Notes: generated from the sequence alone by a model not told the origin. DNA of 64,000 nucleotides from a virus (IMGVR_UViG_3300032236_000300:1214-65213), one strand, 5' to 3'. Positions 6,137 through 62,956 are shown, counted from the stretch's first letter. Translations and numbers: made by a program.

Positions 6137-7048
6137 ATGGCTATTTCACGCGCACAACTACTTAAGGAACTCCTGCCCGGCTTGAACGCATTGTTCGGTC
6201 TTGAGTATGCTCGCTACGGCGAAGAGCACAAAGAGATCTACGAAACAGAGACATCTGAGCGTTCTTTCGAAGAGGAAACTAAACTGTCTGGCTTCTCAGC
6301 CGCTCCTGTCAAGAATGAAGGCTCTGCCATCGCTTATGACAATGCGCAAGAGGCATGGACTACTCGCTATAACCACGAAACCATTGCTTTGGGTTTCTCA
6401 ATCACTGAAGAAGCGATTGAAGATAACTTGTACGACAGCTTGTCTGCTCGCTACACCAAAGGTTTGGCTCGCGCTATGGCTTACACCAAGCAAGTCAAGG
6501 GTGCATCAGTATTGAACAACGGCTTCTCTGCCCAATACGTTGGCGGTGATGGCGTATCTTTGTTCTCTACAGCACACCCCTTGGTCAACGGTGGCACCAA
6601 CAGCAACACTCCATCTACTCAAGCTGACTTGAACGAGACTTCTTTGGAAGCCGCCGTTATCCAGATCGCTGCTTGGACAGACGAGCGTGGCCTCTTGATC
6701 GCTGCTAAGCCCAAGAAGTTGATTATTCCTCCAGCACTCCAGTTCGTTGCAACCCGCTTGCTCGAAACTAAGTTGCGCGTTGGAACAAACAACAACGACA
6801 TCAACGCTATCGAGAACAACGGTTCTATTCCAGAAGGCTGGACTATCAACCACTTCTTGACCGACGTTAATGCTTGGTTCTTGACTACAGACGTGCCTAA
6901 CGGTTTGAAGCACTTCGTTCGTACCCCACTGCAAAACAGCATGGACGGCGACTTCGACACCGGCAACGTGCGCTACAAGTCACGTGAGCGTTACAGCTTC
7001 GGCTGGTCTGATCCATTAGGCGTTTTTGGCTCTTCTGGTTCGTTCTAA
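6137..7048 (+). CDS. Major capsid protein (Mu gpT-like, HK97 fold)
   Basis: N-terminus MAISRAQLLKELLPGLNALFG, internal GGDGVSLFSTAHP, C-terminus DFDTGNVRYKSRERYSFGWSDP; strong RBS; followed by a terminator. Confidence 0.88.
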   Translation: MAISRAQLLKELLPGLNALFGLEYARYGEEHKEIYETETSERSFEEETKLSGFSAAPVKNEGSAIAYDNAQEAWTTRYNHETIALGFSITEEAIEDNLYDSLSARYTKGLARAMAYTKQVKGASVLNNGFSAQYVGGDGVSLFSTAHPLVNGGTNSNTPSTQADLNETSLEAAVIQIAAWTDERGLLIAAKPKKLIIPPALQFVATRLLETKLRVGTNNNDINAIENNGSIPEGWTINHFLTDVNAWFLTTDVPNGLKHFVRTPLQNSMDGDFDTGNVRYKSRERYSFGWSDPLGVFGSSGSF

Positions 7049-27784: not shown

Positions 27785-30309
27785 CCTACTCACGCAGAGA
27801 ACTTTATGCCTTGGGTGAGCCTCTTGGAGATAGCGCAACCTACCGCAAGGCCGACGGCGGTTTAATCCTTGGCGGTGGCGGATCGTCTGCTCCTTCTAGC
27901 CCGACACAAACACAGACTCAAGTTCAAGACTTACCTGATTGGGCCAAGCCATATGCGCAGAACGTACTGTCGCAAGGCGCTGCTTTAACTGATATCAATC
28001 AGAATCCATACCAACCATACGGCGGAAATCGTATTGCTGGGTTTACTGATTTACAGAATCAAGCGTTCCAAGGTGCCCAAAACATGGCACCGTCTCAGCA
28101 GCTAAACACTGGCACGGCATTGGCTGGGGTATCTGGCTTGGGTGGTCTAGGCGTTGCAGGGCAAGCTAACCCACAGAACTTCCAACAAAATGTTGGCGGG
28201 TACATGAACCCGTACATGCAGCAAGTGTTAAATCCACAGCTGGACGAATTACGTCGTCAGTACGGTATTACTGGAACTCAGCAGGCTGGGCAGGCTACAC
28301 AAGCTGGTGCATTTGGCGGTTCGCGCGACGCGATCATGGCGGCTGAAAACCAACGTAATCTTGGTACAGCACAAAACCAAGCAATTGGTCAAGCCTACGG
28401 CAATGCATTTACTAACGCACAAAACCAGTACAACGCAAACATGCAAAACCAGCTTGCTGGTTTTGGATTGGCAAACCAAGCCGCTGGTCAGTTAGGCCAG
28501 TTAGGTCAGACTCAGTATGGTCAGCAGATGGGTATCAACCAACTGCAGAACCAGTATGGTGCACAACAGCAGGCTTTGAACCAACAAGGTTTGACTACTG
28601 CCTACAACGACTTCTTGGCTCAGAAAAACTACCCATACCAGCAGCTCAGCTACATGGCAAACTTGGTGCACAACACACCAATGGGCATGAACACGACCTC
28701 TCAGGTCTATCAAGCGCCTCCGACTGGAGCGCAAACTCTGGGTGCTTTGGGTCTAGGTGCATACGGATTAAGCAAAATTGCGGGTGGTGGTTTAGCAGAA
28801 GACGCACCAAAGTACGGTATCGGCGGTAGTGTTTTAAGTCGTGGGTTTAAAGATGCTGCGGTTGCTAAGATCCCTACTAACGAAGGATTACAGGCTGCGG
28901 CACAAGGTGCTCAAGCACGTGGGGATATAAACACCCAACTAGAAGCCCAAGGGCTGATGAAGCAGGGCGATGCCATAAGACAGGAAGACGCGGCTATCAA
29001 TCGTGGTATTGCTGGACAGTTGCCAGAGCAGTTTGCTGACAATATGGTTCGTGCTGCTCGTGGCGGCATTATGGCGTTTAAAGAAGGTGATGTTGTCGAT
29101 GACTCCGAAGATGACGAAAGAGTAACAACTGACCAAGATGGTGCTTCAATTGGCTTTACAGGTACGCCTTCCCAACAGGCTATGGCGCAAGGGTTTTTGG
29201 CTTCGCAAGCAAGATTACAGAACGCTCCACAGTATGAGCCTCTAACTCGTAAGGGCAGATTGTCCGCACAGCAGCGGTCTTATGAAGACCTAAAAACTAT
29301 GGCTGGCCCCGACCCATATGGCGCGTACGAGAAGCAACTAGCTGAAGATAAAGATACTAGCGCTAAGGTCCTAGAACAAAACAAAGGTCTTGCTGCTTTG
29401 CAAGCAATTCCAGCCGTCCTTCAACCCGGAGGAACGCTTCGTGCTTTTGGTGCTGGTCTAGGAGCACTCGGTACTGGATTCGCTAAAGCTGGCGAGGCCG
29501 ACCGCGCTGAGAAACGATACCTCGGTCAAATGCAGTTCCACTTGGCTGATGCCAAGCGCAAAGAAAACATGGGTATGTACGCCGAGGCTCGCAAAGACGT
29601 ACAAGATGCTGAAGTTGCAAGACTCAATGCAATTAAAGAATACCGCGCTCGTGAGACTGCATCTGGTGGTAACTTCGCTAAGATGGCGCAAGCCTTGCGT
29701 GCTCCCGCTGGTTCGGGCGGTGCAGGTAAGTTGCCACAGGTTGATCGTGATGCTGCAGTGCTAGCAAAACAAATTGTTGACCTAAAAAATAAAGATCCTA
29801 ATGACAAACAGATCCCACTTTTAGAGTCAAAACTTACGGCACTAAAAGATATTATTGCAACGACTAAGACTTCTGATATTGGCGCTAACAAAGCAGAAAT
29901 TGAGAACAAGAAAATCTTTGGCAATATATCTCTTAAAGCTGCAGATGAGGCCCGTAAGAGTGCGTTAGCGGAAGCGTCATCCAAAAATGTTTGGGGCGCT
30001 AAAGATGCAGATGCTAAATTTACAGAGATATATAAGCGGAAATACGACGAGGCTATTGGTAGACACGCCGAAACTATTGGTAAATCCAAAGATGAAATTA
30101 CGCAAGTTGCACCTATGCCAGAGCATGGGGTTAAAAACCCCAACGCCGCTCCAGCGGCAAAACAAACTACGGGCGCAGCAGGGGCACCAGATATTAAGAG
30201 CGTTTCAGGAGCGCCAGCTGGTGCTACCATAGGAAGGAAGACCCTTCAAGGGTATGAAATCCTTGACTCTACCGGTAAACTAATCGGGTACGCAAAAGGC
30301 ACCTCATGA
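27781..30309 (+). CDS. Probable ejection / DNA-transfer protein
   Basis: Gln/Gly/Ala-rich; LPDWAKPY, YMNPYMQQV, GAFGGSR and YPYQQL motifs. Confidence 0.65.
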   Translation: MTYSRRELYALGEPLGDSATYRKADGGLILGGGGSSAPSSPTQTQTQVQDLPDWAKPYAQNVLSQGAALTDINQNPYQPYGGNRIAGFTDLQNQAFQGAQNMAPSQQLNTGTALAGVSGLGGLGVAGQANPQNFQQNVGGYMNPYMQQVLNPQLDELRRQYGITGTQQAGQATQAGAFGGSRDAIMAAENQRNLGTAQNQAIGQAYGNAFTNAQNQYNANMQNQLAGFGLANQAAGQLGQLGQTQYGQQMGINQLQNQYGAQQQALNQQGLTTAYNDFLAQKNYPYQQLSYMANLVHNTPMGMNTTSQVYQAPPTGAQTLGALGLGAYGLSKIAGGGLAEDAPKYGIGGSVLSRGFKDAAVAKIPTNEGLQAAAQGAQARGDINTQLEAQGLMKQGDAIRQEDAAINRGIAGQLPEQFADNMVRAARGGIMAFKEGDVVDDSEDDERVTTDQDGASIGFTGTPSQQAMAQGFLASQARLQNAPQYEPLTRKGRLSAQQRSYEDLKTMAGPDPYGAYEKQLAEDKDTSAKVLEQNKGLAALQAIPAVLQPGGTLRAFGAGLGALGTGFAKAGEADRAEKRYLGQMQFHLADAKRKENMGMYAEARKDVQDAEVARLNAIKEYRARETASGGNFAKMAQALRAPAGSGGAGKLPQVDRDAAVLAKQIVDLKNKDPNDKQIPLLESKLTALKDIIATTKTSDIGANKAEIENKKIFGNISLKAADEARKSALAEASSKNVWGAKDADAKFTEIYKRKYDEAIGRHAETIGKSKDEITQVAPMPEHGVKNPNAAPAAKQTTGAAGAPDIKSVSGAPAGATIGRKTLQGYEILDSTGKLIGYAKGTS

Positions 30310-33300
30310 CATACGAATTCGTTCCTCTCTCCAAGGCTGAACCCACAGAGGCAAAAGACCAAGGAGAAGGTGGCGAGTTTACGTTTGTCCCATTAGCCGC
30401 CGCAAAATCGCCTATACAAGAAAGAATGACCGTTCCTACGAGTGTGGGGACGTCTGGCGTCAGCATGGCTGAAGCGGAAGAAGAGCCTACCCGTCCAGTT
30501 CCTAAAGGCAAATCTATATTTGAGCGCGGCGTCAAGATGGAGCCGCCTACTGTTGACTACCAAAAGAACTTGGAGACTATGCGCCAGAGCGGTAGTCCTG
30601 AGTCGGTTATGTTTACTCCCGGTCGTCAGCTTGAATCTATCGACCAACAGATCATGCGTGGCGAGGCACGCAGAACAAGAGAGCAGGAGATTGCTGCTAA
30701 GAAAGCCGCCGAGCTTGCTGCAACTAAAGAGTTTTTACTTAAACGTCAAGCCGAACAAGAAGGCTATGGCGTTGGTTCTTTTGGGCAAGACATTGCTGGC
30801 GCTACAGCTAAAGGCATTGTAGGTTTAGGGCAGTCTGCTGCTGGTCTAGCGCAACTTGCTACTGGCTGGATTCCCGACGATCCAAATATCAACCCGCTCC
30901 AGATAGGCCAGTGGGGGAAGATGCTGGACAAGCTTGGCTACGACCCCGAAGCCACAAGTCAATTTATATCTGGGCTGCAATCTCCACAAATGCAACTGCA
31001 ACAAAACGAAGTTGCTCAAGCCAAAGGATTCTTTAATACCGCCGCAGCACTTGCAGTAAACCCGCTTGCGCTGCTAGATTCGATTGTTGAGTCTCTCCCC
31101 GGAACTGTTGGTGCAGGTGCTGCTGGTGGTAAGTTCGTACGGTATCTTGCAGGTAAAGCTACGCAAGAAGCAGCAGAGCGCGGGCTAACAGGTGCAGCCG
31201 CACAGAAGTTTATTGCCGAAAAAGTAAAAGAGAAATCTACTCAAATTGCTGCCGCCGCAAGTGCCGCCGAGGGCGCACAAACCGCTGGTTCTATTGCTGA
31301 CCAAGCCCGTGCCGCTGGTAAAGATTGGGATGAATACGTAGCTCCTGCGTTAGCGGCGGGGTTTGGCACGGCGGCTATTGGTGTTGTTGCTGGTAAAGCG
31401 GCGTCCAAACTTGGTATCGGTGACGTAGAAACTGAAATTGCTGCACGCTCTGCGGGCGTCAAAGGGGTTGGTGTTGGCGCTGCTGACCAGTCTCTAGCAA
31501 AAGTTGTACGTAATGAGTTGATTAAAGAAGGCGTCTTTGAAGAGATGCCTCAGTCGGTGCAAGAACAAATCTTTACTAATCTTGCTACTGGTCGTCCTTG
31601 GAACGAAGGTGTAGAAGAAGCCGCAGCACAAGGCTTAATGGCTGGTGCTGGTATGGGTGGCGGGCATGCTGTTATTGCTCGTGCGTTGCAACGCACTGGT
31701 GAAATCGTCCAAGAGCAGACTAACAAATTAGCTCAAAGTATCGTTGACCAACGTCAGCCGTCGGCAGAAGAACTGGCTAAGTCCAAAGGATTCCTGCGCA
31801 AAGAAGGAACCAAAAAAGAAAAGTCTGAAGACGACCTTATCGCCGACTTGGATAAATACAACCAAGAACAGATAGACGCTGAAGAGGCCGCGCCTCCACA
31901 GACTGAAGATGAAAAGTTAGCCGCTAAAGAAGCCGCCGACGAACGTGCAGCGATCCAAACTACGCACGAGTTCGTGCCTCTGCAAGAAGACCAAACAGTC
32001 CCAGAGCCTCCCGACATCTTTGGTAAGAAAGAAGAAGCCGCACCTGCCGCTGTTCAAGAAGCCGCACCTGCCGTTGCTGAAGAAACAGATCTGCAACGCG
32101 CAGATAGATTAGACGCCGAGGCTGCTGAACAAGAGACGGCTCAAGAAGCCCGTAAAGCCAACGCTCGCGAAATTGCCAAAACTAACTTTGATGCCGCTAT
32201 TGACCAAGTAGATAGCCTTGAGTTCAATGGCGATCTTAATGCGGCCTTTGATTCGTATAAACAAAACACGCTCGATACATTGGCTGAGAAAGGCGAGAAA
32301 GATCAGTATGTATCCGATGCCGCCGACCGTGAATTTGATCGGTTAGTTGCAGAGCACAACGAAAAACAGACGCCTACAGCAACTCTTGAGCCAGTAAAAG
32401 ATCAAGAAACAATCCAACAAATTAGACGTGAAAACCCTACAAATGGCGTTTCACTTGGGGATTGGACAGATCCAAATACAGATAACTTATGGGACGGCGC
32501 TAACTATTATGCTGGTATCGCCCAAAGATATGGTGGCCCTACTAGCCTTACGCCCGTCACTACATTAGCGGAAGCTAAACAGGCTGAAGCAAACGGCAAA
32601 TCTATATATGCAGTAAATAAACCAGAGCCAGCTACGGTTGAAGAACTACAAACGCAGCGCGAAAACGCACGTTTGGAGATGATTAAGCTGCATACCAAAA
32701 CTGGTAATAGGCCAAAGACGGGTACCAAGAAGCGTGAAACCTATGATGCTTTACAAGAAAAGCTAAACAAACTAGACGTCGAAATTGCTAAAGTAGCAAA
32801 ACCAGAAGCACCAGAGTTTAACGGCGAACCCGCCCCTATCAGTACTGATCTTGTAGTTATAACTCCACCTGCGGCAGTACAACAAGTACCTGCGCTACCA
32901 CCACCCGATCAAGCATCACCTGATCTACAGGCAGTCTACGACTCCGCCGCCGCTAAAGCAAAGAAGGCGTGGGAAGTTTTATCACTTGCTGATGAAGCAC
33001 TATCTCAAGAAGAAGACCCTTCTGATGGTAGCCAGCCTTCTCCTGTAAAACTTAAACGCTTAACTGATGAGCGAAACAAAGCACATGCTGAGTGGGAAGT
33101 ATTAGAGAAAGAAGCCGAGAACGCATTTACTGCGCTTACTCACGAGCCCTACACCGTAGAAGGTGAAGTCCGTATCGTAGAAGAAACCGTAGCGCCACAG
33201 CTTGCGGCTCTTCCTGCACCTGATGTAAATCGCCTAGAGAAGCACTATGGCTTAAGCGCAGGCTCGCGTGACTTCGTTCTCAAAGTTAAAGAAGATATTG

Positions 33301-36300
33301 TTCGTTACGCCAACGAAGGTGCCGAGGTTATTGCCGAAGCCATCCGTGACATTATTGGCAAACTGCATGCAGGTGTCTTAACTGCAGCAATTATCTTTAA
33401 CCCAACAAACGTAAGCACCGCCGAGTTTGTTACTTACCCAACAGCCACAATTGCCATAACTGAACAGGTACTTGCTGACTTGCCAGCGGGCACGGAGATG
33501 ATGTCGGACGGCGCTAAGCAGTCTTATAAAGTTCTGTACCCATCTATCAAAGATAAGCTGCAAGCAAACAACAAAATCCTTACGATCGTAGATAAACCCA
33601 AGGGTCACACGTACGTGTTCAATCCTGACGGTACTCTATTGTTGCGTACCAAGACGCTGACAGGACTGGCCCCCGGGGACTTCTATAAAGGTAACAACAA
33701 CCTTCCACAGAACCGTATCACCCCCGCAGGGTTCTTCACATTCGGCCTGCGTGATGCAATGCGTAGCGTTGACGAGGCAAAGACTGCTGGCGAGTATGAC
33801 TTCGGCAAAGTGTTCGTGCTAGATAAAGTTATCGGCGGCGAATACAGCATGACCTTGATGCACTCGGTGTGGATGCACGAGTCCGACGCCGCTATGCGTG
33901 CAAAGGCTATTGCCAGTGAAAGCGAAACAGATTCACGCTATTCGTTTGGTTGCATCAACGTAAACAAACAAACCTATAAGTTCCTGATTGATAACCATCT
34001 CAAGCAAATGGATGGCTCATCGGTGTTTGTTGTTCCTGACAACCCTGCAAACTTAGCGTCTCTCCTATCGGGCAAGCCAGAGAACCGTGACGGACTTGAG
34101 CGTAATGTATTCACACCCCCAACAAAGACAGTAAACAGAACTATTGATTCTGCTACTACAACTCCAAACCTTGCATCTGCTGCAGCTGCGGACAGACGCA
34201 GGAATATGTTTAGAAGCATCGTTGCTAACGCGCTTCCAGACGAAGTTGGACCAGACCTTACCGAAGCTATTGCCCATAATCAAAGGGGCATAAACAAACT
34301 AGATGCGCTCTACAAAGACGGCAAGATTACTCCAGAGCAATACGCGGAAGCGATGCTCAAGATTAACGAGAGCATTAGAGAGCGTGCGGATAGAAGTCGT
34401 AGCAACAAGAGTAAACAGCGTGGATTCGGTCGTGTTGTAACCGCATTAGAAGATGCTAAGAAAGCTGGGCGCATTAGTCCAGAGACCGCCGACTTTGCTA
34501 TTTGGTTCTTGATTCAGAACCCCGCGCTTGCAGATGATCTAGCTATTAAGATCGCCCTCCCAAAAACAAAGAGGGAAAAAGAAGCTACTGAAGGTACTGC
34601 CGGAAACTACAACCCTATTGCAAAAATAGTTCGTTTAGTTACACGCAAAGCGCCGACACCGTTTGAGGCTGAGACAGAAACTGAACGCTACGCCGCTACT
34701 AAAGAAGACACGGCTGTTCACGAAATACTGCACCATCTTGAGCGTATGTTGCCCGTGCAAGTACGCCGTTTGATACGCAACGAATGGTCACGCCAGATTA
34801 GAGACAAGCTAAAAGAAGCAGCTAAAACTAAAAACACAGCGCTTCAGTTCTATCTAAATAACGTAATCAAAGCCAACACTGAGCAAGACATGGTTGCTTG
34901 GACGCTTGCGTCTAAGGCTATCCAAGATGGTGATGTGCCATACGAAATGTATGCGCTATTTAACCCTTCAGAATTCTGGGCGGTTAACGCATCTAACCTA
35001 CTGTCTGATCGCTACTATGCTGGCACTAAGTTCCAAAAAGCAAAACAATGGATGCGCGAGTTCATTGAAACGCTTAAATCTATATTCGGCTTGAGTAGCG
35101 ATGATCCGATCATCCAAGGTCTAAATGCTGTATTGCGTGGCGATGGCACTTTTGTATCCAAAGACATGCTTTCAGAAGGCAAGCCTGACCAAACATTTAG
35201 ACAGATTGTGCAGAAGGGTTTGCACCCTTCCGTAGTTGAAGCAATAAACAACAACGACATCAGCGGCGCTCTGCGTGCTGTAGCAAAGAACACATCTGGT
35301 ATCTACTCCGTGCTTGCCGCACGGTTGGCAGAACTGAACCTACCTACAACAATCGGCTTTAACCGTGAAAGAGAATTGGTACGCCAGCACATAGACAGCA
35401 AGTCTAGTCAGCAGCAAGTCCAACTCTTTACCTACGTACGCCGTGCGTACCCAGAACTATTTGAAAAGTATTTCAAGAACTACGATCGGTCTGAGAGTTT
35501 AGAACTTGTTTATGCAGGTTTGAAAGAACTGTACAAACCCCAGTACAACACATCTGCGCTGAATATGCAGTTGGCGCTAGTGCGTGATGAGTTTGATAAG
35601 GCCATGCCCGGCCTCACGCATTCTGGTTTGTACATGCCTAGCTCTGATGCAATCAGCCTTAGAACTAGTGGTCAATTCGGCTTAACTAACCGCGTGTTCT
35701 TACATGAGGTTGTGCACGCCGCTACTGAGTTTGTATTGCGTGACACCAAAGGTCTGAGCCAACGCCAACGCGAAGCAGTAACTCAGTTGTATGTCATGTA
35801 CAACTATGCAAAGAGCCAACTAAACATTGAAGCCTATGGGTTCAAGAACGTATTTGAGTTTGTTGCTGAAGCACTAACCAACGCTGACTTCCAAAAGAAA
35901 CTACGTACCGTCGAATACGAACCCGCACAAGGGTCGGTCTACAACTCGCTGTTGCGTTTTGCAATGAAAATGTTCGGTGCCGACAACGTAGCTGGCGCAA
36001 CAATAATCCAAGCCAACGAGATCTTCTCTGCATTCCGTCCAGCTGGTGCAGTAAATGCACCGTTGCGGTTTGGCCCACCGATCAAGGGTAAGAAGGGCAG
36101 ATACAAAAAAGGCCCGATTACAAGTAAGTGGCGTACCGCCGAGGATGCTGCAGTTCGTTTAGCTGATGCACTCAAAGGTGCAATGAGTAGTATTCCAGAA
36201 GCATCTAGTCTAGCTAGTGCGGTTCGCCGTGCGGGTAAATTTAAATTACGTAACCTAGAGTTCCCATTCTTAGGCTTACGGATGCTCAAAGAGGATGTAC

Positions 36301-39260
36301 AGCAAAGTAATCCTTACATTGGCTCGGCGGTCAAGATCATTACAGATATGTTGGCGTACCGTGGACGTATGCTCAGCCGTGCTAAAGACACTATTCAGAA
36401 GTGGGCACAGATGCAGTTGGACGCGCCTGCACAATCCCGCTTGATGTCACGCGTTATGTTGGAAGCTACTATTCAAGGTATCGAAGTCGATCCTCTAGGC
36501 CCCGGCTACGTAAACCCATTGACTGCTGGACCTAACGATAAAGTTGCACCGCAACCGCTTGTCGACGCATGGAATAAACTTGATCCTAAGTTCCAAAACT
36601 TGTATCGTGAAGTACGTAACTACTATACCGATCTGCTCAAGGCTACTATCCGTGAAATGAAGATGCGGGTGTTGACAAGCGGCAAAACATCGGCAGAGAA
36701 GAAAGACCTAATACGTAAGATTAACAAGCAGTTTGCTGAAGAAAACTTTAGCCGCCCATACTTCCCATTACGGAGATTTGGTGATTTCTGGTTCCAAGTT
36801 ACCGCTAACGGACGTACCGAGTTCTACACATTTGAAAACCATATCGATCGCGATTTAGCGTACGACAAACGGTACGCTGAATTATCTAAAGGCAATGTGA
36901 CTCAACAGGCTGCGGCTGAAAGCATGCGTGCTGGCAATACCATATCGCAGTTGTACACCGACAATAAAAATATTGGCGGCGCTCTAAAAGATGTCAATGA
37001 ACTTATCGATAGTATTTCTGACACAGTGACTACAGTTCAGGGAGGCCAAGCCTTTACTACTAAGAAGTCGGCTGATGCTATCAAGAGTGAAATTAAAGGT
37101 GCTATTGACCAACTAGTCTACGTTCTTTTGCCACAGCAAAGTATGCGTAAGATGTTTATTAACCGCCGCGCTATCCAAGGTGCAAGCGGTGACATGTTGC
37201 GTGTGTTTGCGGATACATCTGTACGAGCGGCATATCAGCAGTCTCGGTTTAAGTTTGTTCAGCCATTCCTAAACAACATGAGCAACGCTCATGATTACAT
37301 CCGTGCGTTTGTACAAGGAAAACGTCAGACTGAAGCACTCGACTACATCAACGAAGTTGAGAAACGCTACAAGCATATCTTTAGTATGGAAGATAAGAGT
37401 GCGTTAGCTAGGTTTGCTGGCGGCGCTAACCAAATGATGTTCATGGTCAACTTGACTGCGCCTGCTAGTGCGTTGATGAACGTCTTGGCATTCCCAATTA
37501 TGGCTGAGCGCACCATAGGCGGTAAGTACGGTATCGTTAAAGCAAATGCTGTAATGGCTAAATACTTTGGTCAGTACATGCGGACACTACCTAAACGCAC
37601 TCTTGTGCCTATGGGCAAAGGTCTAAAAGCTGAAATCTCGTGGCCTTCTATTGTGGAAGGTGGCTACCTGAAGGGTGCATCTGCCCGTGCTGCGCAGAAG
37701 TTTGCCGACGACGGCGACATTAACGTATCGCAAACCAGCGACGTGTTTGATTTTGCAGAGCGTCCATCTGAGTTATATAGCAACGGGATGTTTAGCCGAG
37801 TCATGCAAGGCATAGCCATGCCATTCCATCAGCTTGACCGCCTTACCCGTGAAGTAACGCTGATGTCTGTATTTGATTTGGCATACGAACAGTACCTAAC
37901 TGCTGACAAACGTGACGAGCGTGGCGTTATCCAACGTGATACCAAGACAGGTAACCCATTAAAGTACACAGAGGAAGAAGCATTTAACGCGGCGATCGAA
38001 GATGCGCGTGATGCGGCGGCGGCTTCGCTTGGTGAATACCTACGCCAACTTAAAGGTCGTGCGTTCTCAGGGCCTGTCGGTGCGCTTGTGATGCAGTTCA
38101 AGCAAGTGAGCGTTACGATTTTCCGTGCTATCTATCGTGATATGTGGCTGGCGTTTGGCGCACCGTTGACAACAGCAGAACGGGACGAGTTCAAGAAGTT
38201 CTTGACCGAACAGTACAAAGGCGCCCCAAATGCTACACAACTTGTAGAACAGCAGATAAAAGAATACGAAGCCTACCAAAAAGAAATTCACCGCGAAGCC
38301 TTCCGCAAGGTAGTCATCATCAATGCAACTGCGTTCTTAATGGCCGGTGCAGAAGGTACGCCTTTGTATTTCTTAGTATCGTTACTACCAGCGATTGCTA
38401 GAGTATTTGCTCCAGACGGCGAAGACTGGGATGACTTTGAGACTTGGTTCTTCAATATGCTAATGAATGATTTTAGTGGAGCTGTTAGCGAACTAGCGAT
38501 GCAGTCTGGCATGGACGAAGAAAGCGCGGAAGCATTAGCTAAGAAGGCCGCGCATGCTGTTGCACGCGGAATCCCTGCGGCTGTAACTAACTGGAGTTTG
38601 ACCGAACGTATTGGTATAAACCCCGGGGAGATGCTCTTCCGTAACGCACGCTACTACGCTGACGCTAAGCAAGAACTGCAAGATATGGTTATCAGTAACC
38701 TCGGCGCGTTCCCAAGTTACATGCTTGATAACGTACCTACTGCTTACCAACTTGTACAGCAAGGACACTACGAGCGTGCCTACGAAAAGCTGTTCCCTGC
38801 AATTGCCACTAAGCCAGCCGTTGCTTATCGATTTAGTGAAGAAGGTGCTAAACGTATTTCGGGCAAAACTGTCTTGCACAAAGATGAGTTCGATAAGCTA
38901 GACATTGCGGCACAGGCTGTCGGTATCCGCCCAGAAAAGCTAACTTTAGTAGAGCGTGCAAGCTCAGCGGCATCAGAGAAGATGCTTAGATTGAATAACA
39001 AAAAGTCTCAGTTGTTGGACCGCATTTGGGTAGAGCATTTGGCTAACAGTCCAGCCGAGAACATAGCACGACAAGAGTTTTACAAGTTTGCTTATAAACA
39101 CCCTAACTTTATTGATGACCCAGAAAAAACTATCGAAGATAGTTTTGAGAAGAAGTACGAAGGGTTGGCAAGCGCAGGTGTGAATCTTGGCGTGGATATC
39201 CCAGAGAATCTATTGCCAGAGGTTGCGCCGATCCTGTCGGGTGCAAAGAAGTTGCGTTGA
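30306..39260 (+). CDS. Giant polyvalent ejection protein (L,D-transpeptidase-like domain and two HEXXH zincin motifs)
   Basis: 2984 aa; IVDK...TG...ITPAG.F...MH...SFGCINV; AVHEILH...EFWA; LHEVVH...EFVAE; PYFPLRRFG. Confidence 0.75.
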   Translation: MTYEFVPLSKAEPTEAKDQGEGGEFTFVPLAAAKSPIQERMTVPTSVGTSGVSMAEAEEEPTRPVPKGKSIFERGVKMEPPTVDYQKNLETMRQSGSPESVMFTPGRQLESIDQQIMRGEARRTREQEIAAKKAAELAATKEFLLKRQAEQEGYGVGSFGQDIAGATAKGIVGLGQSAAGLAQLATGWIPDDPNINPLQIGQWGKMLDKLGYDPEATSQFISGLQSPQMQLQQNEVAQAKGFFNTAAALAVNPLALLDSIVESLPGTVGAGAAGGKFVRYLAGKATQEAAERGLTGAAAQKFIAEKVKEKSTQIAAAASAAEGAQTAGSIADQARAAGKDWDEYVAPALAAGFGTAAIGVVAGKAASKLGIGDVETEIAARSAGVKGVGVGAADQSLAKVVRNELIKEGVFEEMPQSVQEQIFTNLATGRPWNEGVEEAAAQGLMAGAGMGGGHAVIARALQRTGEIVQEQTNKLAQSIVDQRQPSAEELAKSKGFLRKEGTKKEKSEDDLIADLDKYNQEQIDAEEAAPPQTEDEKLAAKEAADERAAIQTTHEFVPLQEDQTVPEPPDIFGKKEEAAPAAVQEAAPAVAEETDLQRADRLDAEAAEQETAQEARKANAREIAKTNFDAAIDQVDSLEFNGDLNAAFDSYKQNTLDTLAEKGEKDQYVSDAADREFDRLVAEHNEKQTPTATLEPVKDQETIQQIRRENPTNGVSLGDWTDPNTDNLWDGANYYAGIAQRYGGPTSLTPVTTLAEAKQAEANGKSIYAVNKPEPATVEELQTQRENARLEMIKLHTKTGNRPKTGTKKRETYDALQEKLNKLDVEIAKVAKPEAPEFNGEPAPISTDLVVITPPAAVQQVPALPPPDQASPDLQAVYDSAAAKAKKAWEVLSLADEALSQEEDPSDGSQPSPVKLKRLTDERNKAHAEWEVLEKEAENAFTALTHEPYTVEGEVRIVEETVAPQLAALPAPDVNRLEKHYGLSAGSRDFVLKVKEDIVRYANEGAEVIAEAIRDIIGKLHAGVLTAAIIFNPTNVSTAEFVTYPTATIAITEQVLADLPAGTEMMSDGAKQSYKVLYPSIKDKLQANNKILTIVDKPKGHTYVFNPDGTLLLRTKTLTGLAPGDFYKGNNNLPQNRITPAGFFTFGLRDAMRSVDEAKTAGEYDFGKVFVLDKVIGGEYSMTLMHSVWMHESDAAMRAKAIASESETDSRYSFGCINVNKQTYKFLIDNHLKQMDGSSVFVVPDNPANLASLLSGKPENRDGLERNVFTPPTKTVNRTIDSATTTPNLASAAAADRRRNMFRSIVANALPDEVGPDLTEAIAHNQRGINKLDALYKDGKITPEQYAEAMLKINESIRERADRSRSNKSKQRGFGRVVTALEDAKKAGRISPETADFAIWFLIQNPALADDLAIKIALPKTKREKEATEGTAGNYNPIAKIVRLVTRKAPTPFEAETETERYAATKEDTAVHEILHHLERMLPVQVRRLIRNEWSRQIRDKLKEAAKTKNTALQFYLNNVIKANTEQDMVAWTLASKAIQDGDVPYEMYALFNPSEFWAVNASNLLSDRYYAGTKFQKAKQWMREFIETLKSIFGLSSDDPIIQGLNAVLRGDGTFVSKDMLSEGKPDQTFRQIVQKGLHPSVVEAINNNDISGALRAVAKNTSGIYSVLAARLAELNLPTTIGFNRERELVRQHIDSKSSQQQVQLFTYVRRAYPELFEKYFKNYDRSESLELVYAGLKELYKPQYNTSALNMQLALVRDEFDKAMPGLTHSGLYMPSSDAISLRTSGQFGLTNRVFLHEVVHAATEFVLRDTKGLSQRQREAVTQLYVMYNYAKSQLNIEAYGFKNVFEFVAEALTNADFQKKLRTVEYEPAQGSVYNSLLRFAMKMFGADNVAGATIIQANEIFSAFRPAGAVNAPLRFGPPIKGKKGRYKKGPITSKWRTAEDAAVRLADALKGAMSSIPEASSLASAVRRAGKFKLRNLEFPFLGLRMLKEDVQQSNPYIGSAVKIITDMLAYRGRMLSRAKDTIQKWAQMQLDAPAQSRLMSRVMLEATIQGIEVDPLGPGYVNPLTAGPNDKVAPQPLVDAWNKLDPKFQNLYREVRNYYTDLLKATIREMKMRVLTSGKTSAEKKDLIRKINKQFAEENFSRPYFPLRRFGDFWFQVTANGRTEFYTFENHIDRDLAYDKRYAELSKGNVTQQAAAESMRAGNTISQLYTDNKNIGGALKDVNELIDSISDTVTTVQGGQAFTTKKSADAIKSEIKGAIDQLVYVLLPQQSMRKMFINRRAIQGASGDMLRVFADTSVRAAYQQSRFKFVQPFLNNMSNAHDYIRAFVQGKRQTEALDYINEVEKRYKHIFSMEDKSALARFAGGANQMMFMVNLTAPASALMNVLAFPIMAERTIGGKYGIVKANAVMAKYFGQYMRTLPKRTLVPMGKGLKAEISWPSIVEGGYLKGASARAAQKFADDGDINVSQTSDVFDFAERPSELYSNGMFSRVMQGIAMPFHQLDRLTREVTLMSVFDLAYEQYLTADKRDERGVIQRDTKTGNPLKYTEEEAFNAAIEDARDAAAASLGEYLRQLKGRAFSGPVGALVMQFKQVSVTIFRAIYRDMWLAFGAPLTTAERDEFKKFLTEQYKGAPNATQLVEQQIKEYEAYQKEIHREAFRKVVIINATAFLMAGAEGTPLYFLVSLLPAIARVFAPDGEDWDDFETWFFNMLMNDFSGAVSELAMQSGMDEESAEALAKKAAHAVARGIPAAVTNWSLTERIGINPGEMLFRNARYYADAKQELQDMVISNLGAFPSYMLDNVPTAYQLVQQGHYERAYEKLFPAIATKPAVAYRFSEEGAKRISGKTVLHKDEFDKLDIAAQAVGIRPEKLTLVERASSAASEKMLRLNNKKSQLLDRIWVEHLANSPAENIARQEFYKFAYKHPNFIDDPEKTIEDSFEKKYEGLASAGVNLGVDIPENLLPEVAPILSGAKKLR

Positions 39261-44044: not shown

Positions 44045-44072
44045 ATTATACTCTATTTGTTGACAGTGTCAA
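44045..44072 (-). promoter_or_regulatory. Sigma70 promoter with palindromic -35
   Basis: Minus strand TTGACA-16-TATAAT; palindrome TTGACAgTGTCAA at 44060-72. Confidence 0.75.
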
Positions 44073-45610
44073 GAGTTAATTTCACTTTTATACAGGTCGA
44101 TGATCTTGTTGTGAAAGTCCAATTTGTTTTGCAACATACCGTAGAGTTTTGTTTCTACAGGACTACCTTCAAGATGCACGACTGTCATAGGATTGCGCTG
44201 ACCCGGCCTATCGATACGTGCGTTTGCTTGCAAGTATGTTTCTATCGACGTGACAGGAGCGTACCACACGATTACGTTAGCGGCTGTTAGGGTTACTCCG
44301 TGTGCCGCCGCTTGTGGTTGAATCAAAAGTACTCGTGGCTCATCTTGTTCTTGAAACCTTTTAAAGATGTCGGTGCGCTTTGACACACTTACAGAGCCAT
44401 TGATAATCTCTGACGTTACCTTGTTCTTTGTTAGGAAGTCTTGTATTAAATCTAACGTGTGCGTGAATGGTACAAACACTAGAACTTTATGGCTTGCCTC
44501 TTCAATAACTTCTAACAAAATGTTTAATCGATTCGATGCATCAAACTCAATTACATTCTTGGTATCTGTATATACAGCGCCGCAAGAGATTTGTAATAGT
44601 TTGTTTAGTTGAGCCGCCGCATTCACGGCAGAGACTTCATCGCCAACTGCTTCGATCAGCATTTCTTTCTTGAGGTCTTTGTAGTACTTGGACTGCTGTG
44701 GTGTTAGTGGTGCGAATCGTGAAGTGTGTGTCACATCAGGCAGATCAATACAGTCTTTCTTCTCAAACCGAATCGCTGGCTGGAGCATGTTGTGCACGAT
44801 GCTTTGTGCTTGTGGTTTTGGAATCCATTTGAATCGAGTCAGTTGATACATCACAACATCGCGGTAAGCCGTGTATAAGTGCGGGGCTTTTGCAGGTACG
44901 CATAGTTTGGCTAGGCCATAAGCATCTAGTGGAGACTGAGCTGCGGGTGTACCCGTCATCATCCATATCCAAGTATCAGGAGTGACGATTCTTTTTAACG
45001 TTTTAAACCGCTCGGTCCTAGAGTTCTTGTAAGCGTTTGCTTCGTCAATGATGATGAGGTCAAACCCACCAGCCTTGAGTTCTTCTTCAACAACGCTCAC
45101 GCCGTCGTAGTTAATGATGACGTACTCGGCACCGCCCTCGACGATAGCCTTGCGTTTCTTGCGGTCGCCGTGCGCCACATCTACATGGCGGTGAACAGCA
45201 AACTTAAACAAGTCGGCTTGCCATGCGGCTTGCATGATTGAGACGGGGCAGATAACTAGCACGCGACTGATGTAGCCCTGCGCTATTAAATAGTCCGATG
45301 CCCATATAGCCGATGCCGTTTTGCCAGTACCCTGCTCGTTAAAACAAAAGGCGCGTGGGTGTAAGGTCAGAAAGGATGCGGTATCCTTTTGATGGTTCAT
45401 TGGTCTATGGAGTCCGGGCCAGTCATAGTCACGCTCTATGGGAGACGGCACGTCAGGTAGCCCCAATACTTTAAGCATCTGTGCTTCCTTCAACCCCCAA
45501 TGAACAGCCACCGAATCCTCGGTGTACTCGGCACTCTTAGCAATCGTCGAGAGAATCTTCTGTGGCTCTTCAGTCTGTATGACTAGGTATTTGTTTTCAA
45601 CTACTTGCAT
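44069..45610 (-). CDS. SNF2-family helicase
   Basis: EQGTGKT, IIDEAN, MTGTP, HGVTL and QANARIDRPGQ motifs. Confidence 0.9.
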   Translation of the reverse strand: MQVVENKYLVIQTEEPQKILSTIAKSAEYTEDSVAVHWGLKEAQMLKVLGLPDVPSPIERDYDWPGLHRPMNHQKDTASFLTLHPRAFCFNEQGTGKTASAIWASDYLIAQGYISRVLVICPVSIMQAAWQADLFKFAVHRHVDVAHGDRKKRKAIVEGGAEYVIINYDGVSVVEEELKAGGFDLIIIDEANAYKNSRTERFKTLKRIVTPDTWIWMMTGTPAAQSPLDAYGLAKLCVPAKAPHLYTAYRDVVMYQLTRFKWIPKPQAQSIVHNMLQPAIRFEKKDCIDLPDVTHTSRFAPLTPQQSKYYKDLKKEMLIEAVGDEVSAVNAAAQLNKLLQISCGAVYTDTKNVIEFDASNRLNILLEVIEEASHKVLVFVPFTHTLDLIQDFLTKNKVTSEIINGSVSVSKRTDIFKRFQEQDEPRVLLIQPQAAAHGVTLTAANVIVWYAPVTSIETYLQANARIDRPGQRNPMTVVHLEGSPVETKLYGMLQNKLDFHNKIIDLYKSEINS

Positions 45611-45947
45611 TTAGTTTGTCTTTTAGTACGTAGATTTGGGTATAAGAAGAAATATCTGACTCTGAAAGCAACAAGCCTCGCGCATGTGTTTCTTGTGCTA
45701 CTCGCATGTCGTCGCCAGTTTCATCCATCCCCCACTTCTTTCTAAGCGAATGAAACGTGATTGGTTGATCGCCATATAACAAAAGCCATGCGGCTTTAAG
45801 CTGATCGTTTGTCATGTCACGAGCAAAGTGTCCTACCACTGTAGTCTTTATGTCTTCAAACCGCATCGTATAGTCCATAGACCTAGGGTCAGACCAACCA
45901 AACTCATACCGCCCTGTTGCCTTGTATTTCATTGTCGCCGTACTCAT
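45597..45947 (-). CDS. Hypothetical protein carrying a capsid C-terminal-like peptide
   Basis: MSTATMKYKATGRYEFGWSDP...; shares a C-terminal domain with 45944..46351. Confidence 0.65.
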   Translation of the reverse strand: MSTATMKYKATGRYEFGWSDPRSMDYTMRFEDIKTTVVGHFARDMTNDQLKAAWLLLYGDQPITFHSLRKKWGMDETGDDMRVAQETHARGLLLSESDISSYTQIYVLKDKLNASS

Positions 45948-46351
45948 GTCTTGATCCTGCCTATTGGTACCCACTGATCGGTTAAGTTGTGGGTTTCTAT
46001 TTCACCAAATGCAATCAAACGATGCGCCACAACATTTAGATAGTCGTCGTCCATCGGCTTTTCCATAGACACCCAACGTGTTCCATACGCAAGTATCCAA
46101 GCGGCACGAAGTTGTTCCACGGTTAACTCAAATGCAGGGTGCTCTTCCAAGTCAATCTTTCTAAGGCGAGCCTGTGGTGGGTATGTGGTTTGTTTTAGGG
46201 TGTGGTTTTTTAACATGTTGGCTACGGTGGCGCTGTTACCGAGGTGAGTTATGTATGGGCCAGCAGTGATAGTGGCGCTACCATTACCACCATTACTAAC
46301 CTCTAACATCGAAGACCCATAAAACATCGCATCAACAGATGCTTTTTCCAA
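45944..46351 (-). CDS. Hypothetical protein, paralog of 45597..45947
   Basis: TVEQLRAAWILAYG versus TNDQLKAAWLLLYG. Start uncertain; TTG 46351 chosen to avoid overlap with the HNH gene. Confidence 0.55.
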   Translation of the reverse strand: MEKASVDAMFYGSSMLEVSNGGNGSATITAGPYITHLGNSATVANMLKNHTLKQTTYPPQARLRKIDLEEHPAFELTVEQLRAAWILAYGTRWVSMEKPMDDDYLNVVAHRLIAFGEIETHNLTDQWVPIGRIKT

Positions 46352-46355
46352 TGAC

Positions 46356-46622
46356 TCACTTAACCCCGTGGTCGGATCGGCGAGCATATGATCTATTACT
46401 GCTTGCGCTTGTGACGCGCAGGTTTGATCTTGTGGTTTTTCCGCCTTTACTAAGAGGCTTTTTATGATCGACATCTTTTCCATCTCCCTTGTGAACTAGT
46501 CCTGCTTTTTCCATAATCGCCCGCGCTTTGTTGCGCTCGGCTCTTTTCTTCTTAACGGCGGGCGTGCCGTCGTATGTTTCGTATTCGTGCTTGTATGGTC
46601 TAGGTTTATTGACGTATGGCAT
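46356..46622 (-). CDS. HNH endonuclease
   Basis: DVDHKKPLSKGG....NLRV.....N. Confidence 0.75.
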   Translation of the reverse strand: MPYVNKPRPYKHEYETYDGTPAVKKKRAERNKARAIMEKAGLVHKGDGKDVDHKKPLSKGGKTTRSNLRVTSASSNRSYARRSDHGVK

Positions 46623-46631
46623 GGTGGCTCC

Positions 46632-46883
46632 TTAGTAGTTTGCGGTATTGCCTTTGTAGACGATACGGTAGTTTTGGATTTCACGGTCAATGATTTCGCG
46701 TGAGTTGTTGCGAGTGACATCTACCGCAATATTTCTAATGTGTGTCGCAAGTGAACCCCAAGGGTTTCTTGCAATTTCTTCCATCACCGTATCGACAATC
46801 AATTTCTTCACGTCGTCTTGCAACTTCATGTAAGCGGCGGCGGCATTGTTTGGGTCGGCTAAGTCTTCTGCGGTTTCTATCAT
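46632..46883 (-). CDS. Hypothetical protein
   Basis: RBS GGAGG. Confidence 0.55.
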   Translation of the reverse strand: MIETAEDLADPNNAAAAYMKLQDDVKKLIVDTVMEEIARNPWGSLATHIRNIAVDVTRNNSREIIDREIQNYRIVYKGNTANY

Positions 46884-46892
46884 ATTTCCTCC

Positions 46893-47558
46893 TTAAGTTT
46901 TCTTACTGTTGTGCTCACAGTCGGTTACAGGGCACCAACCACGGCAGGTGAAGTTTGGTCTAGGGTTCCAAACATCCGTAATCATCGCACTCTCTAGCTG
47001 ATTTGTCTCGGGTATCCATTTGCCCCAAGCCTCAGTCTGTTGGTCTGCAGTGAATTCGGCAGGAACTAAATCTTTGACTACCAAAAACATCAGGCCAGCC
47101 TTGATGGATTTGATTTGCGGGAAGTGTTTGAAAGTCAAAAGGGACAGCAATTCTAGTTGCTTCTTGTCCGCATACCGACTGGACTTGCTAGTTTTGTAAT
47201 CAACAATTCGTGCCTTCTCGCCATCAATAACAAGCAGGTCGGCGATACCACGAAACCAAACATTCTTGTCTCTAAATCCGCAGGGCTTCATGTCCTTGGT
47301 TAAGCCCATCTCGTACTCGCACAACTTCTCGCCCGACAAGGCTTTCAGTGGGTCTAAGAACGGCTGGATGTAAGCGTACTTTTCTGGTATCGGAGTACCA
47401 TCACGGATGTATTCTTCTGCTGCCTTATGAACCGCACTGCCGTAGAGCAAGTGTTCCTGTGGTGGCTCGACGATATCTTTGACGATACGCATCCTGTGGT
47501 ACTTGCGTGGGCATTGTTGGAACAGCGAAATACTGCTGTAAGACCATGTGTAATTCAT
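46893..47558 (-). CDS. PD-(D/E)XK exonuclease (Cas4/RecB-like)
   Basis: SYSS...F.QCP, GSAVH, GIADL, DYKT, QL and C..CP..DC. Confidence 0.85.
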   Translation of the reverse strand: MNYTWSYSSISLFQQCPRKYHRMRIVKDIVEPPQEHLLYGSAVHKAAEEYIRDGTPIPEKYAYIQPFLDPLKALSGEKLCEYEMGLTKDMKPCGFRDKNVWFRGIADLLVIDGEKARIVDYKTSKSSRYADKKQLELLSLLTFKHFPQIKSIKAGLMFLVVKDLVPAEFTADQQTEAWGKWIPETNQLESAMITDVWNPRPNFTCRGWCPVTDCEHNSKKT

Positions 47559-61423: not shown

Positions 61424-62041
61424 ATGGAAAAAACTATCGTAGCGCAAGCCATTCCAAATCAAGCATCAAAGTCAGGTGCAATGTTCGCAAAGTCAGAAAT
61501 TGACGCGAAAGAATCCTTGGAGATGTTTGCTCGTGATCTTGGAACCGAGCCGACCTACACCGACTGGATCGCCAAGCGCACCGACTGGGTGAACGGATAT
61601 ATAACAGCAAAACCGCAGACCAAGGGCAACGCATCGGATTTGGCATTCAAACGCTTTGCAGATCGACTGGTAGCAGATTATGGTTTCACGATACCAAAAG
61701 CACAAACGCAGGCATCGATCAAGAAAGCCACTGAGAGGGCTAAGAAAGCGGAAGAACTGGAACGCAAATATGAATCCATACCAACGCACCAAATCACCGA
61801 GAATCTGCGCCAAGCGTATGAACTGCAAGCCAAGAATCCCACCAAGAAATTAGCAACGCTAAAAGAACTGGAGACGATTCTAAAAGCGCGAACCAAAGCG
61901 GAAGAAAGCGGAGTTAAAGAAGAACTTAAATCTGCGCGATCTGCCTTGATCGAACTGGCTAAGAAATGCACCGATCTAGAATTACTGGAGACCGCGACCA
62001 GTATTCTCGATGAGTCGAACTATGAAGTGACGATTCAGTAA
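61424..62041 (+). CDS. Hypothetical protein, paralog of 62267..62956
   Basis: RBS GGAG; LGTEPT...W...GY...RFA...G.T.PK shared with the paralog. Confidence 0.75.
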   Translation: MEKTIVAQAIPNQASKSGAMFAKSEIDAKESLEMFARDLGTEPTYTDWIAKRTDWVNGYITAKPQTKGNASDLAFKRFADRLVADYGFTIPKAQTQASIKKATERAKKAEELERKYESIPTHQITENLRQAYELQAKNPTKKLATLKELETILKARTKAEESGVKEELKSARSALIELAKKCTDLELLETATSILDESNYEVTIQ

Positions 62042-62266: not shown

Positions 62267-62956
62267 ATGACAGACAAAACACCAGTGGCACAAGTAGTGC
62301 ACGCACTTAGTCACGATCGCCGCACAGAAGCATATGAGCAAGGCGGCCGATACTCAGCAAATAGGCTCGAGGCCGTAGCGATCGCGTCAGACGCCGCAAA
62401 GACGCTGGGCACTGATCCATCATTTGACCAGTGGACAGAATATTCTGTGCAGTGGAAAGACGGCTACATGCACAACAACCCAGACAACACTGGCGGCGCG
62501 GCCGATACAGCATGGGGTAGGTTTGCCAGTACTCTAAACGAATTATTTGGGTTGACCAAACCGAAGAGCACCAGCAAGGCCGCTACAGCGAAAGCTACGG
62601 CACGAGAAGCAAAGGCCGCCGAAGTACTGGCAAAACACGCCGACAAAGCCGCTCACACTATCAAAGAACAAATAGCAAAGAACTACAGCGCGATCGCTGA
62701 GGCCGTAAAGCAAGGTAAGACCACTAAGGTACAGCGCGACGACGGCGTGGTTGTAGATCTTAAGAAGGAGCTAAAAGAATTAGAGACAGTGCTCAAGGTT
62801 AAGACCAGCGAGGAGAACAAAGCATTTGGTGAAGAACTAAAAGCATTACGCGCCGAGGTACGCGAGGCCGTGGGCAAATGTACAGACCTCGAACAATTAC
62901 AGGCGGCACTTGATTGTCTGTCTGGCGGCTTCGATATCAACTACGATATATCTTAA
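62267..62956 (+). CDS. Hypothetical protein, paralog of 61424..62041
   Basis: RBS AAGGAG; LKELET.LK..T.EE...EELK..R...KCTDLE.L shared with the paralog. Confidence 0.75.
   Translation: MTDKTPVAQVVHALSHDRRTEAYEQGGRYSANRLEAVAIASDAAKTLGTDPSFDQWTEYSVQWKDGYMHNNPDNTGGAADTAWGRFASTLNELFGLTKPKSTSKAATAKATAREAKAAEVLAKHADKAAHTIKEQIAKNYSAIAEAVKQGKTTKVQRDDGVVVDLKKELKELETVLKVKTSEENKAFGEELKALRAEVREAVGKCTDLEQLQAALDCLSGGFDINYDIS

Follow-up and report, generated by a model that had tools for sequence, protein, structure and literature searches.

A capsid-like peptide on a small accessory protein in the replication module of an uncultured freshwater phage

Introduction

Phage genomes are mosaics, and the accessory genes that fill their variable slots are a main source of new functions in host-virus conflict. 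The SaPI1 protein CpmB shares a short motif with the scaffolding protein of phage 80alpha and acts on capsid assembly. The Gol region of T4 gp23 is sensed through Lit and EF-Tu, and a capsid protein is also sensed by CapRel SJ46. The capsid-targeting sequence of the T4 internal proteins and the cargo-loading peptides of encapsulins bind a scaffold or shell. A literature search on capsid mimics and decoys returned, among the entries listed, general reviews only.

Here we analyse ORF116, a non-structural protein of an uncultured freshwater phage that is encoded in a stretch of 64,000 nucleotides (IMGVR_UViG_3300032236_000300:1214-65213), referred to below as the window. ORF116 carries a 20-27 residue piece of a capsid protein, too small to fold alone, that has long been under purifying selection on an unrelated protein of the early module. 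Like CpmB, it is a non-structural or foreign accessory protein that carries a short copy of a conserved interaction motif from a head-assembly protein. In CpmB the copied motif is the capsid-binding C-terminus of the scaffold and the target is the capsid protein, whereas the piece in ORF116 comes from the capsid protein itself and sits on a probable winged-helix protein in the replication module. In Gol/Lit and CapRel SJ46 the recognised element is a short conserved stretch of an HK97-fold capsid protein, the kind of segment copied in ORF116; there, however, the stretch does its work as part of the capsid protein itself and sets off abortive infection of the host, whereas ORF116 is a separate gene of the early module that carries a copy. 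The T4 and encapsulin peptides are likewise short terminal peptides on otherwise unrelated proteins, linked to an HK97-fold shell, but they are not copies of the shell and their genes lie with structural or cargo genes, in contrast to the shell copy encoded in the replication module here.

Results

The ORF116 gene and its family

The features of the window that are relevant to this analysis are collected in Table 1. The ATG of ORF116 at 45947 overlaps the TGA stop codon of the upstream gene as ATGA, and an AGGA sequence lies 9-12 bases 5' of it. The ORF listing also holds an alternative GTG 27 bases farther upstream; several orthologues have in-frame stops between this GTG and the ATG, just 5' of the latter, indicating that the ATG is the true start. 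The 125-residue form beginning at the GTG, with a capsid match of 14/27, was rejected because of these stops in the added stretch, and also because the added bases double as the end of the upstream gene and as the ribosome-binding site. Even a start at the next in-frame ATG (codon 6, M6) would leave the motif intact downstream, so that the possibility raised with the original prediction, a translation start beyond the motif, does not hold.

Table 1. Positions of the features discussed in the text, with the evidence for each
Feature	Position	Strand	Evidence
ORF116, accessory protein, 116 residues: capsid-tail copy, linker and probable winged-helix domain	45597..45947	minus	ORF listing, homologues
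Capsid-tail copy, ORF116 T3-R22, TATMKYKATGRYEFGWSDPR	45882..45941	minus	BLASTP, hhalign, conservation, dN/dS
Probable winged-helix domain, ORF116 residues 39-112	45612..45833	minus	AF2 model, weak structural matches
ORF179, upstream tandem paralogue: winged-helix region shared, no clear capsid motif	45944..46483	minus	BLASTP
HNH endonuclease gene, upstream border of the slot	46356..46622	minus	Pfam HNH E 5e-4, phrog_4590 E 5.9e-23
SNF2-family helicase gene, downstream border of the slot	44069..45610	minus	Pfam SNF2-rel_dom E 6e-21, Helicase_C E 3e-16
Major capsid protein, 303 residues, HK97 fold	6137..7048	plus	Pfam, AF2, VIA-align
Capsid source-type segment, T275-L294, TGNVRYKSRERYSFGWSDPL	6959..7018	plus	AF2 strand, tail conservation

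A large protein collection yielded 30 homologues of ORF116 (48-100% identity), all of them metagenomic, and a full scan of cluster representatives added more distant ones. Among the distant members, P0032 and P0033 carry the motif at the N-terminus, and P0031, P0035 and P0037 carry it after ~40 extra residues. The motif is missing from P0023, P0034, P0039-41, L011 and L012 and degenerate in L007; since such members exist, the domain evidently works without it. Two giant proteins returned by the scan of representatives (P0036, 2781 aa; P0042, 6161 aa) are repeat proteins whose scores had been summed over the repeats, and they were discarded as relatives.

Neither ORF116 nor ORF179 has a family in Pfam, PHROGs, NCBIfam or PADLOC, and the protein atlas gave no usable match. 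A tblastn search of ORF116 against 50,697 phage isolate records found no orthologue, returning just capsid tails plus weak DnaQ rows (E 0.3 or worse), and nothing was found for ORF179 among the phage isolates.

The N-terminus of ORF116 matches the end of the capsid protein

The original prediction paired a peptide of ORF116 with one near the C-terminus of the capsid protein. Reading out the sequence gave KYKATGRYEFGWSDP for ORF116 (45929-45885, minus strand) and RYKSRERYSFGWSDP for the capsid protein (6971-7015, plus strand, near the end of the 303-residue ORF); both coordinates proved right, and the peptides are identical at 10/15 positions. The use of different synonymous codons at six of the ten identical residues (CGG/CGT, TAT/TAC, TTT/TTC, GGT/GGC, GAC/GAT, CCT/CCA) was also borne out, and the remaining four share the same codon in both genes (TAC, AAG, TGG, TCT).

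Pairwise BLASTP of ORF116 against the capsid protein aligned 19 residues, 11 of them identical (E 2e-6). When all window ORFs of at least 50 aa (n=333) were compared with each other by BLASTP, ORF116 and the capsid protein formed the third-best non-overlapping pair (E 6.75e-6), and the only two pairs that scored better were both true paralogues. Comparing profiles built from 30 ORF116 homologues and from 13 diverse capsids, hhalign placed ORF116 residues 3-24 on capsid residues 275-296 (22 columns, probability 96.3%, E 1.8e-9). The profile of the ORF116 family picked up the capsid tail in 41 of the 45 records with the same capsid family (14/14 + 27/31), and in the reverse search the capsid profile found the N-termini of two ORF116 orthologues (E 2.4e-7 and 1.8e-6). 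These comparisons confirm the observation of a capsid-like peptide on a small non-structural protein and show that the first ~22 residues of ORF116 are descended from the 3'-terminal part of a capsid gene belonging to this Mu-gpT-like, HK97-fold family.

ORF116 itself does not belong among capsid proteins. Its residues 3-24 alone align to the capsid profile, the rest models as another fold, and neither Pfam nor PHROG searches gave a capsid match; it is a carrier of a capsid fragment, not a capsid protein.

One record (G012, locus L125) contained a second match to the motif profile at 64797-64865, at the end of a 65-kb record and within a 225-residue open frame. Most simply, this is a repeat of the end of the capsid gene through terminal redundancy of the assembly.

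The copied piece corresponds to a conserved strand of the capsid

The capsid protein scored well above the family cut-offs of both Phage_capsid_4 (PF25209; E 3e-12, 47.7 bits against 27) and Mu-like_gpT (PF10124; E 7e-10, 39.1 bits against 20.1) in Pfam. Its AF2 model (pLDDT 87.5) has the HK97 fold, aligning by VIA-align to encapsulins and phage capsids with Z 13.5-16.3, including encapsulin 9fy6_C (Z 16.3, 228 aligned, rmsd 3.5) and HK97 1ohg_A (Z 13.5, 229 aligned, rmsd 4.0), and it is collinear with HK97-fold shells through to the C-terminus. Its best structural matches are encapsulins (Z 15-16).

Residues 278-290 of the capsid protein (VRYKSRERYSFGW) are modelled as one long strand (pLDDT 81-94), immediately preceded by the long strand 257-271; after it come the turn SDPLG and then VFGS, modelled as a short strand. 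The piece found in ORF116 comprises, in the capsid model, the final long beta strand and the D-P-R-G turn after it. We take strand 278-290 to be the last strand of the P domain, before the chain returns to the A domain, as in the standard HK97 topology. Among 74 capsids (36-96% identity to that of the window) the tail is one of the best-conserved parts of the family: T275, R285 and D292 are invariant, and D272, F273, N277, Y286, G289, R294 and G298 are at least 90% conserved.

A 280-residue gene upstream of the capsid gene (5282-6124) was considered as a tail-less capsid paralogue and rejected (hhalign probability 0.25%). Near it lie a putative scaffold gene (3763-4764) and a gene for another head-module protein, of 166 residues (4761-5261), and a further gene (7193-7906) follows that of the capsid. 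For the Mu-GpT-type capsid of phage JBD30 (8rkc_A), the structural alignment covers residues 26-242 of the capsid model only, and a sequence profile puts the tail region on the middle of the JBD30 chain, residues 169-224, a stretch that is not significant alone; the segments may be ordered differently in the two capsid types.

A disordered arm precedes a probable winged-helix domain

The AF2 monomer model of ORF116, computed from a 30-row alignment, is of moderate confidence (mean pLDDT 69.9). Residues 1-18 have pLDDT <50 and are not packed on the domain, which consists of helices 47-58, 65-74 and 79-89 followed by strands 93-98 and 103-108 (block pLDDT 75-87), that is, the three helices and hairpin wing that characterise the winged-helix superfamily. 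The structural matches listed were nearly all winged-helix domains or proteins (MarR, MecI, ESCRT-II, Rpa2, ORC), but all were weak: Foldseek E values began at 0.12 and VIA-align Z did not exceed 4.7. The domain has no match in Pfam or NCBIfam. As modelled, ORF116 is thus a disordered N-terminal arm ahead of a probable winged-helix domain.

One likeness is to RPA32C in complex with the N-terminus of SMARCAL1 (PDB 4mqv), where a small winged helix is paired with an SNF2-family helicase (Z 3.9 over 60 residues); this match is weak, lies within the noise level of the tool and comes with no sequence relationship to the ORF116 domain.

The motif is conserved and under purifying selection

About 35 relatives keep the capsid-like peptide. 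It is present in 29 of the 30 close homologues and persists in homologues down to 36% identity. The single exception is P0023, whose N-terminus is that of the upstream paralogue and runs into the domain directly after the motif position. This metagenomic protein of 160 aa is a natural chimera, in which an ORF179-like N-terminal stretch of ~66 residues leads into ORF116 from residue 22.

Within the ORF116 alignment K9 and P21 are invariant (30/30 rows), and T5, Y8, R13, Y14, G17, D20 and R22 are at least 90% conserved. The match extends farther in some relatives: four of the 30 close homologues (P0021, P0024, P0025, P0030) continue with G-[VI]-F-G, P0033, L022 and L023 also continue with G-[VIL]-F-G, resembling the capsid G-V-F-G-S, and a looser Y/F-G version occurs in other, more distant homologues. 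The copy reaches ~27 residues, including G-x-F-G-S, in some relatives, and this continuation suggests that the ancestral capture spanned nearly the whole capsid tail.

Pooled Nei-Gojobori estimates from nine coding sequences gave dN/dS of 0.139 for motif codons 5-22, 0.352 for linker codons 23-38 and 0.144 for domain codons 39-112; these values are rough, with synonymous sites near saturation, and the proportions of nonsynonymous differences rank alike (motif 0.234, linker 0.376, domain 0.194). By these estimates the motif and the remainder of ORF116 are under purifying selection of similar strength, indicating that the peptide is translated rather than decaying. The original prediction had proposed that selection keeps the peptide and had named neutral decay among orthologues as the outcome that would speak against it; the retention of the motif in close and distant homologues, at a dN/dS of 0.14 against 0.35 for the linker, agrees with the former and does not fit the latter.

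That the peptide is a functionless relic or a chance resemblance is therefore hardly tenable, and this reading is largely refuted. The window-level BLAST E value is admittedly modest once all ORF pairs are counted, the extension of the match 5' of the ATG is untranslated in orthologues, and several family members have lost the motif. Against these points stand the hhalign E value, the presence of the motif in all but one of the close homologues, its lower dN/dS relative to the linker and the further piece of capsid tail in some relatives.

The ORF116 motif and the capsid tail share their consensus residue at 12 of 20 aligned positions, the D-P-R turn included. Their per-position entropies correlate (Spearman 0.49, p 0.027), a moderate correlation that could stem from generic properties of Gly, Pro, Asp and aromatic residues. 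The position of W18 in ORF116 and W290 in the capsid varies alike in both families (W, Y/F, V, A/I). Other constraints are specific to ORF116: T5 stands in place of capsid N277, P21 is invariant where the capsids vary, and position 15 is free where a serine is mostly kept in capsids.

The copy is nearer to the tails of other capsid clades

Capsid tails were gathered from four clades of the capsid family. In the clade of the window D-P-L was found in 80/80 tails, mostly with V-R-Y-K-[SA]-R-E, whereas the other three clades mostly have D-P-R, as in the motif, and two of them carry K-A-T like ORF116. Mean identities of 30 motifs over 18 positions were 9.8 to the tails of the own clade, 9.9 to the HTVC023P-type, 10.2 to the Alcaligenes-phage-type and 11.6 to the Caulobacter-phage-type clade, and the last was the closest for 23/30 family motifs; 33 sequences had been considered, and three were dropped (P0015 and P0026 start one residue late, and P0023 lacks the motif). 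The capsid tails of phages RW and GB2A, to be plated on Caulobacter vibrioides CB15, rank among those nearest to the motif. At the DNA level the motif of the window is identical to its own capsid tail at 30/51 bases and to the best foreign tail at 40/51.

These data answer the question raised by the original prediction as to which capsid lineage is closest, namely the Caulobacter-phage-type clade. They favour the proposed capture from the capsid gene of a related phage, given the nearest clade of 23/30 motifs, DPR rather than DPL, and 40/51 against 30/51 bases. They also uphold the view that the copy is not a recent DNA duplication, since the codons differ and none of 301 capsid tails is near-identical to any motif. 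Recent gene conversion from a capsid gene was rejected for a similar reason, with a best motif/tail DNA identity of just 40/51 among the 301 tails. Selection and foreign capture had been posed as alternatives; both are favoured here, and they are compatible.

Four records with related replication modules (helicase ~60% identical; three of the records complete) carry tails of the own clade, with D-P-L in three and D-A-L in one, from which it follows that the module and the own-clade capsid have long travelled together. The sequences thus indicate that the copy either predates the R-to-L change in its own clade or came from another clade; being nearer to the tails of other clades than to those of its own, it was captured long ago or from a relative. 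Among the records reached, ORF116 and the capsid gene occur together in the genome of the window only, and the records of ORF116 orthologues are fragments without a capsid gene (contigs of 1.1-8.9 kb in the metagenome scan).

ORF116 occupies a hypervariable accessory slot

The surrounding genes have a conserved order: PolA, PD-(D/E)XK nuclease, HNH, the slot, SNF2 helicase and Gp157-like. A search for related loci found 80 helicase genes, of which 14 had too little upstream DNA and 66 could be classified. An HNH gene lies 5' of the helicase gene in 62 of these. The slot is empty, with HNH abutting the helicase gene, in 40/66 loci; it holds an ORF179-like paralogue only in 12/66, a paralogue plus a motif-bearing gene (the arrangement of the window) in 2/66, a single motif-bearing gene in 1/66, a winged-helix-only gene of 97-105 residues in 2/66 and other short content in 5/66, and in the remaining 4/66 no HNH gene was found upstream and there was no family match. 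Loci with helicases 90-96% identical to that of the window include the empty slot, the ORF179-like paralogue alone, the paralogue plus motif-bearing gene and the winged-helix-only gene; the other three categories were not seen among them. This is the distribution of accessory genes in a variable region, the slot being empty in 40/66 loci and filled by four gene arrangements in others, and it shows that ORF116 sits in a hypervariable accessory slot extending from the HNH gene to the SNF2 helicase gene. No homologue of ORF116 was present in any of the 45 records with the same capsid family, 25 of which are at least 90% complete. PADLOC gave no family match for ORF116 or the scanned neighbours.

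In a 4273-base contig of a relative, from an RNA library, 43 other letters link position 45613 to 45990, and the part left out is almost exactly ORF116; such sequencing-run data are contigs and show presence or absence, not transcription. The same contig also lacks an 83-residue ORF (46632-46883, minus strand) in the gap between the nuclease and HNH genes. Contigs of three runs likewise lack this ORF, having 14-17 other letters as the link from 46622 to 46908, and related loci carry other small genes at the nuclease-HNH position; this is a second accessory indel.

ORF116 residues 40-59 align by BLASTP to residues 115-134 of ORF179 (11/20, E 7e-6), and in related loci the A1 profile matches genes of the ORF179 type. 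Over its first ~42 codons, ORF179 shares 128 bases with the 3' end of the HNH gene, read in another frame. The conserved 'MEKMS..K..L.K' with which ORF179-like and single-gene forms begin is a shifted reading of the conserved HNH core, and the true start may therefore lie farther downstream. For the same kind of reason there is doubt about the longer starts of the single-gene forms: the first ~40 codons share their bases with the conserved HNH gene in a different frame, and this forces an apparent conservation of these codons. A possible hidden motif in ORF179, in which model positions 3-21 fall on residues ~25-43, is weak and lies inside the HNH overlap, and we make no claim for it.

Relative to its closest relative, L018, the window shows 70-83% identity over ~90 bases (45970-45881), which is the motif-coding stretch, whereas the two flanks, of ~90 and ~180 bases, are 100% identical. 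The patch differs at synonymous and nonsynonymous sites, suggesting that alleles of the motif module have been exchanged. The junction in P0023 falls at the same place, and the motif therefore behaves as an exchangeable module.

In locus L400 (995-1189), from a more distant relative, the slot holds a 65-residue ORF with GIWLLVFGRKWVSLEAI, resembling the conserved helix of ORF179 and ORF116 and falling below the profile threshold; it may be a minimal member of the family.

The genomic position also bears on whether the arm is a head-targeting signal that binds the scaffold or shell, so that a DNA-binding protein would be packaged and delivered with the DNA to the next host. A short, disordered, terminal peptide on a small and probably DNA-binding protein would suit such a role, as would the accessory nature of the gene and the structural proximity of the shell to encapsulins. 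We nevertheless consider it very unlikely: the gene lies in the replication module, overlapping the helicase gene, rather than among the head genes, the peptide copies the shell itself and not a partner that binds the shell, and in some relatives ~40 further residues precede the peptide if the long start is used.

Possible roles of the capsid-like arm

Our best explanation is that the arm of ORF116 acts in trans as a mimic of the capsid strand, docking on whatever recognises that strand, and we hold the chances of this putative binding to be about even. Likeness to the capsid would then itself be the selected property. The arm would meet a surface that normally packs against or recognises the capsid strand and would fold onto it by beta-strand addition, and the winged-helix domain might hold DNA or the neighbouring SNF2 helicase. 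The first candidate target would be the capsid protein or head-assembly factors, whether its own or those of a co-infecting relative, and the second a host sensor of the capsid protein. Consistent with mimicry, the same residues and the same turn are kept over deep divergence, and the distribution of ORF116 is accessory and conflict-like. Several observations speak against it, namely the existence of the motif-less members named above, the location of ORF116 in the replication module, away from the head genes, and the family-specific constraints at T5, P21 and position 15. In addition, because the strand already lies beside a strand of the same chain in the capsid model, a free copy would have no obvious open site on the folded capsid protein.

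The main rival is a capsid fragment that was joined to a winged-helix gene by illegitimate recombination and has since taken on a role unrelated to the capsid, either as an arm whose basic and aromatic residues contact DNA or as a strand that self-associates or binds the SNF2 helicase, with the likeness reflecting origin only. We regard such exaptation as a serious possibility that falls somewhat short of an even chance. If the arm forms a strand as modelled for the capsid, it would be amphipathic, with K7, K9 and R13 on one side and Y8, Y14, F16 and W18 on the other, which would suit contact with nucleic acid or protein. The capsid piece is fused to a probable winged-helix domain, ORF116 is always directly upstream of the helicase gene and overlaps it (by 14 bases at the ORF116 stop in the window), and the weak fold matches include winged helices that bind SNF2 proteins (RPA32C/SMARCAL1, 4mqv_C, Z 3.9; CSB, 6a6i_A, Z 3.8). 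The fixed differences from capsids at T5 and P21, the occupation of the same slot by motif-less members and the lack of an obvious open site on the folded capsid protein point the same way. However, the residues that are kept are largely capsid ones, including the D-P-R turn, and it would be surprising for a new role to preserve 10-15/18 identities to the capsid tail while the rest of the protein falls to 36-50%; moreover, AF2 leaves the arm unpacked on its own domain.

If mimicry of the capsid strand is correct, it would offer a virus a simple route to a competitor or decoy of its own highly conserved surface, and a handle for finding what recognises that surface, be it an assembly partner or a host sensor. 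A more specific proposal, which we consider rather unlikely, is that ORF116 is a decoy displaying the capsid strand early in infection and belongs to an undescribed class of accessory proteins. The copy would tie up a protein that recognises the major capsid protein, either an immune sensor of the host or a capsid-binding factor of a rival element, and so blunt abortive infection triggered by the capsid or hijacking of the capsid; the winged-helix domain would tether the decoy to DNA or to the SNF2 helicase.

Other features of the window

The best non-overlapping ORF pair in the all-against-all BLASTP comparison consists of tandem paralogues at 61424-62041 and 62267-62956 on the plus strand (32% identity over 227 residues, E 1.8e-30). 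A second tandem pair lies in the structural arm at 13145-13576 and 13785-14261, also on the plus strand (38% over 153 residues, E 3.6e-22). The structural arm further contains a single ORF of 2984 residues at 30306-39260 on the plus strand.
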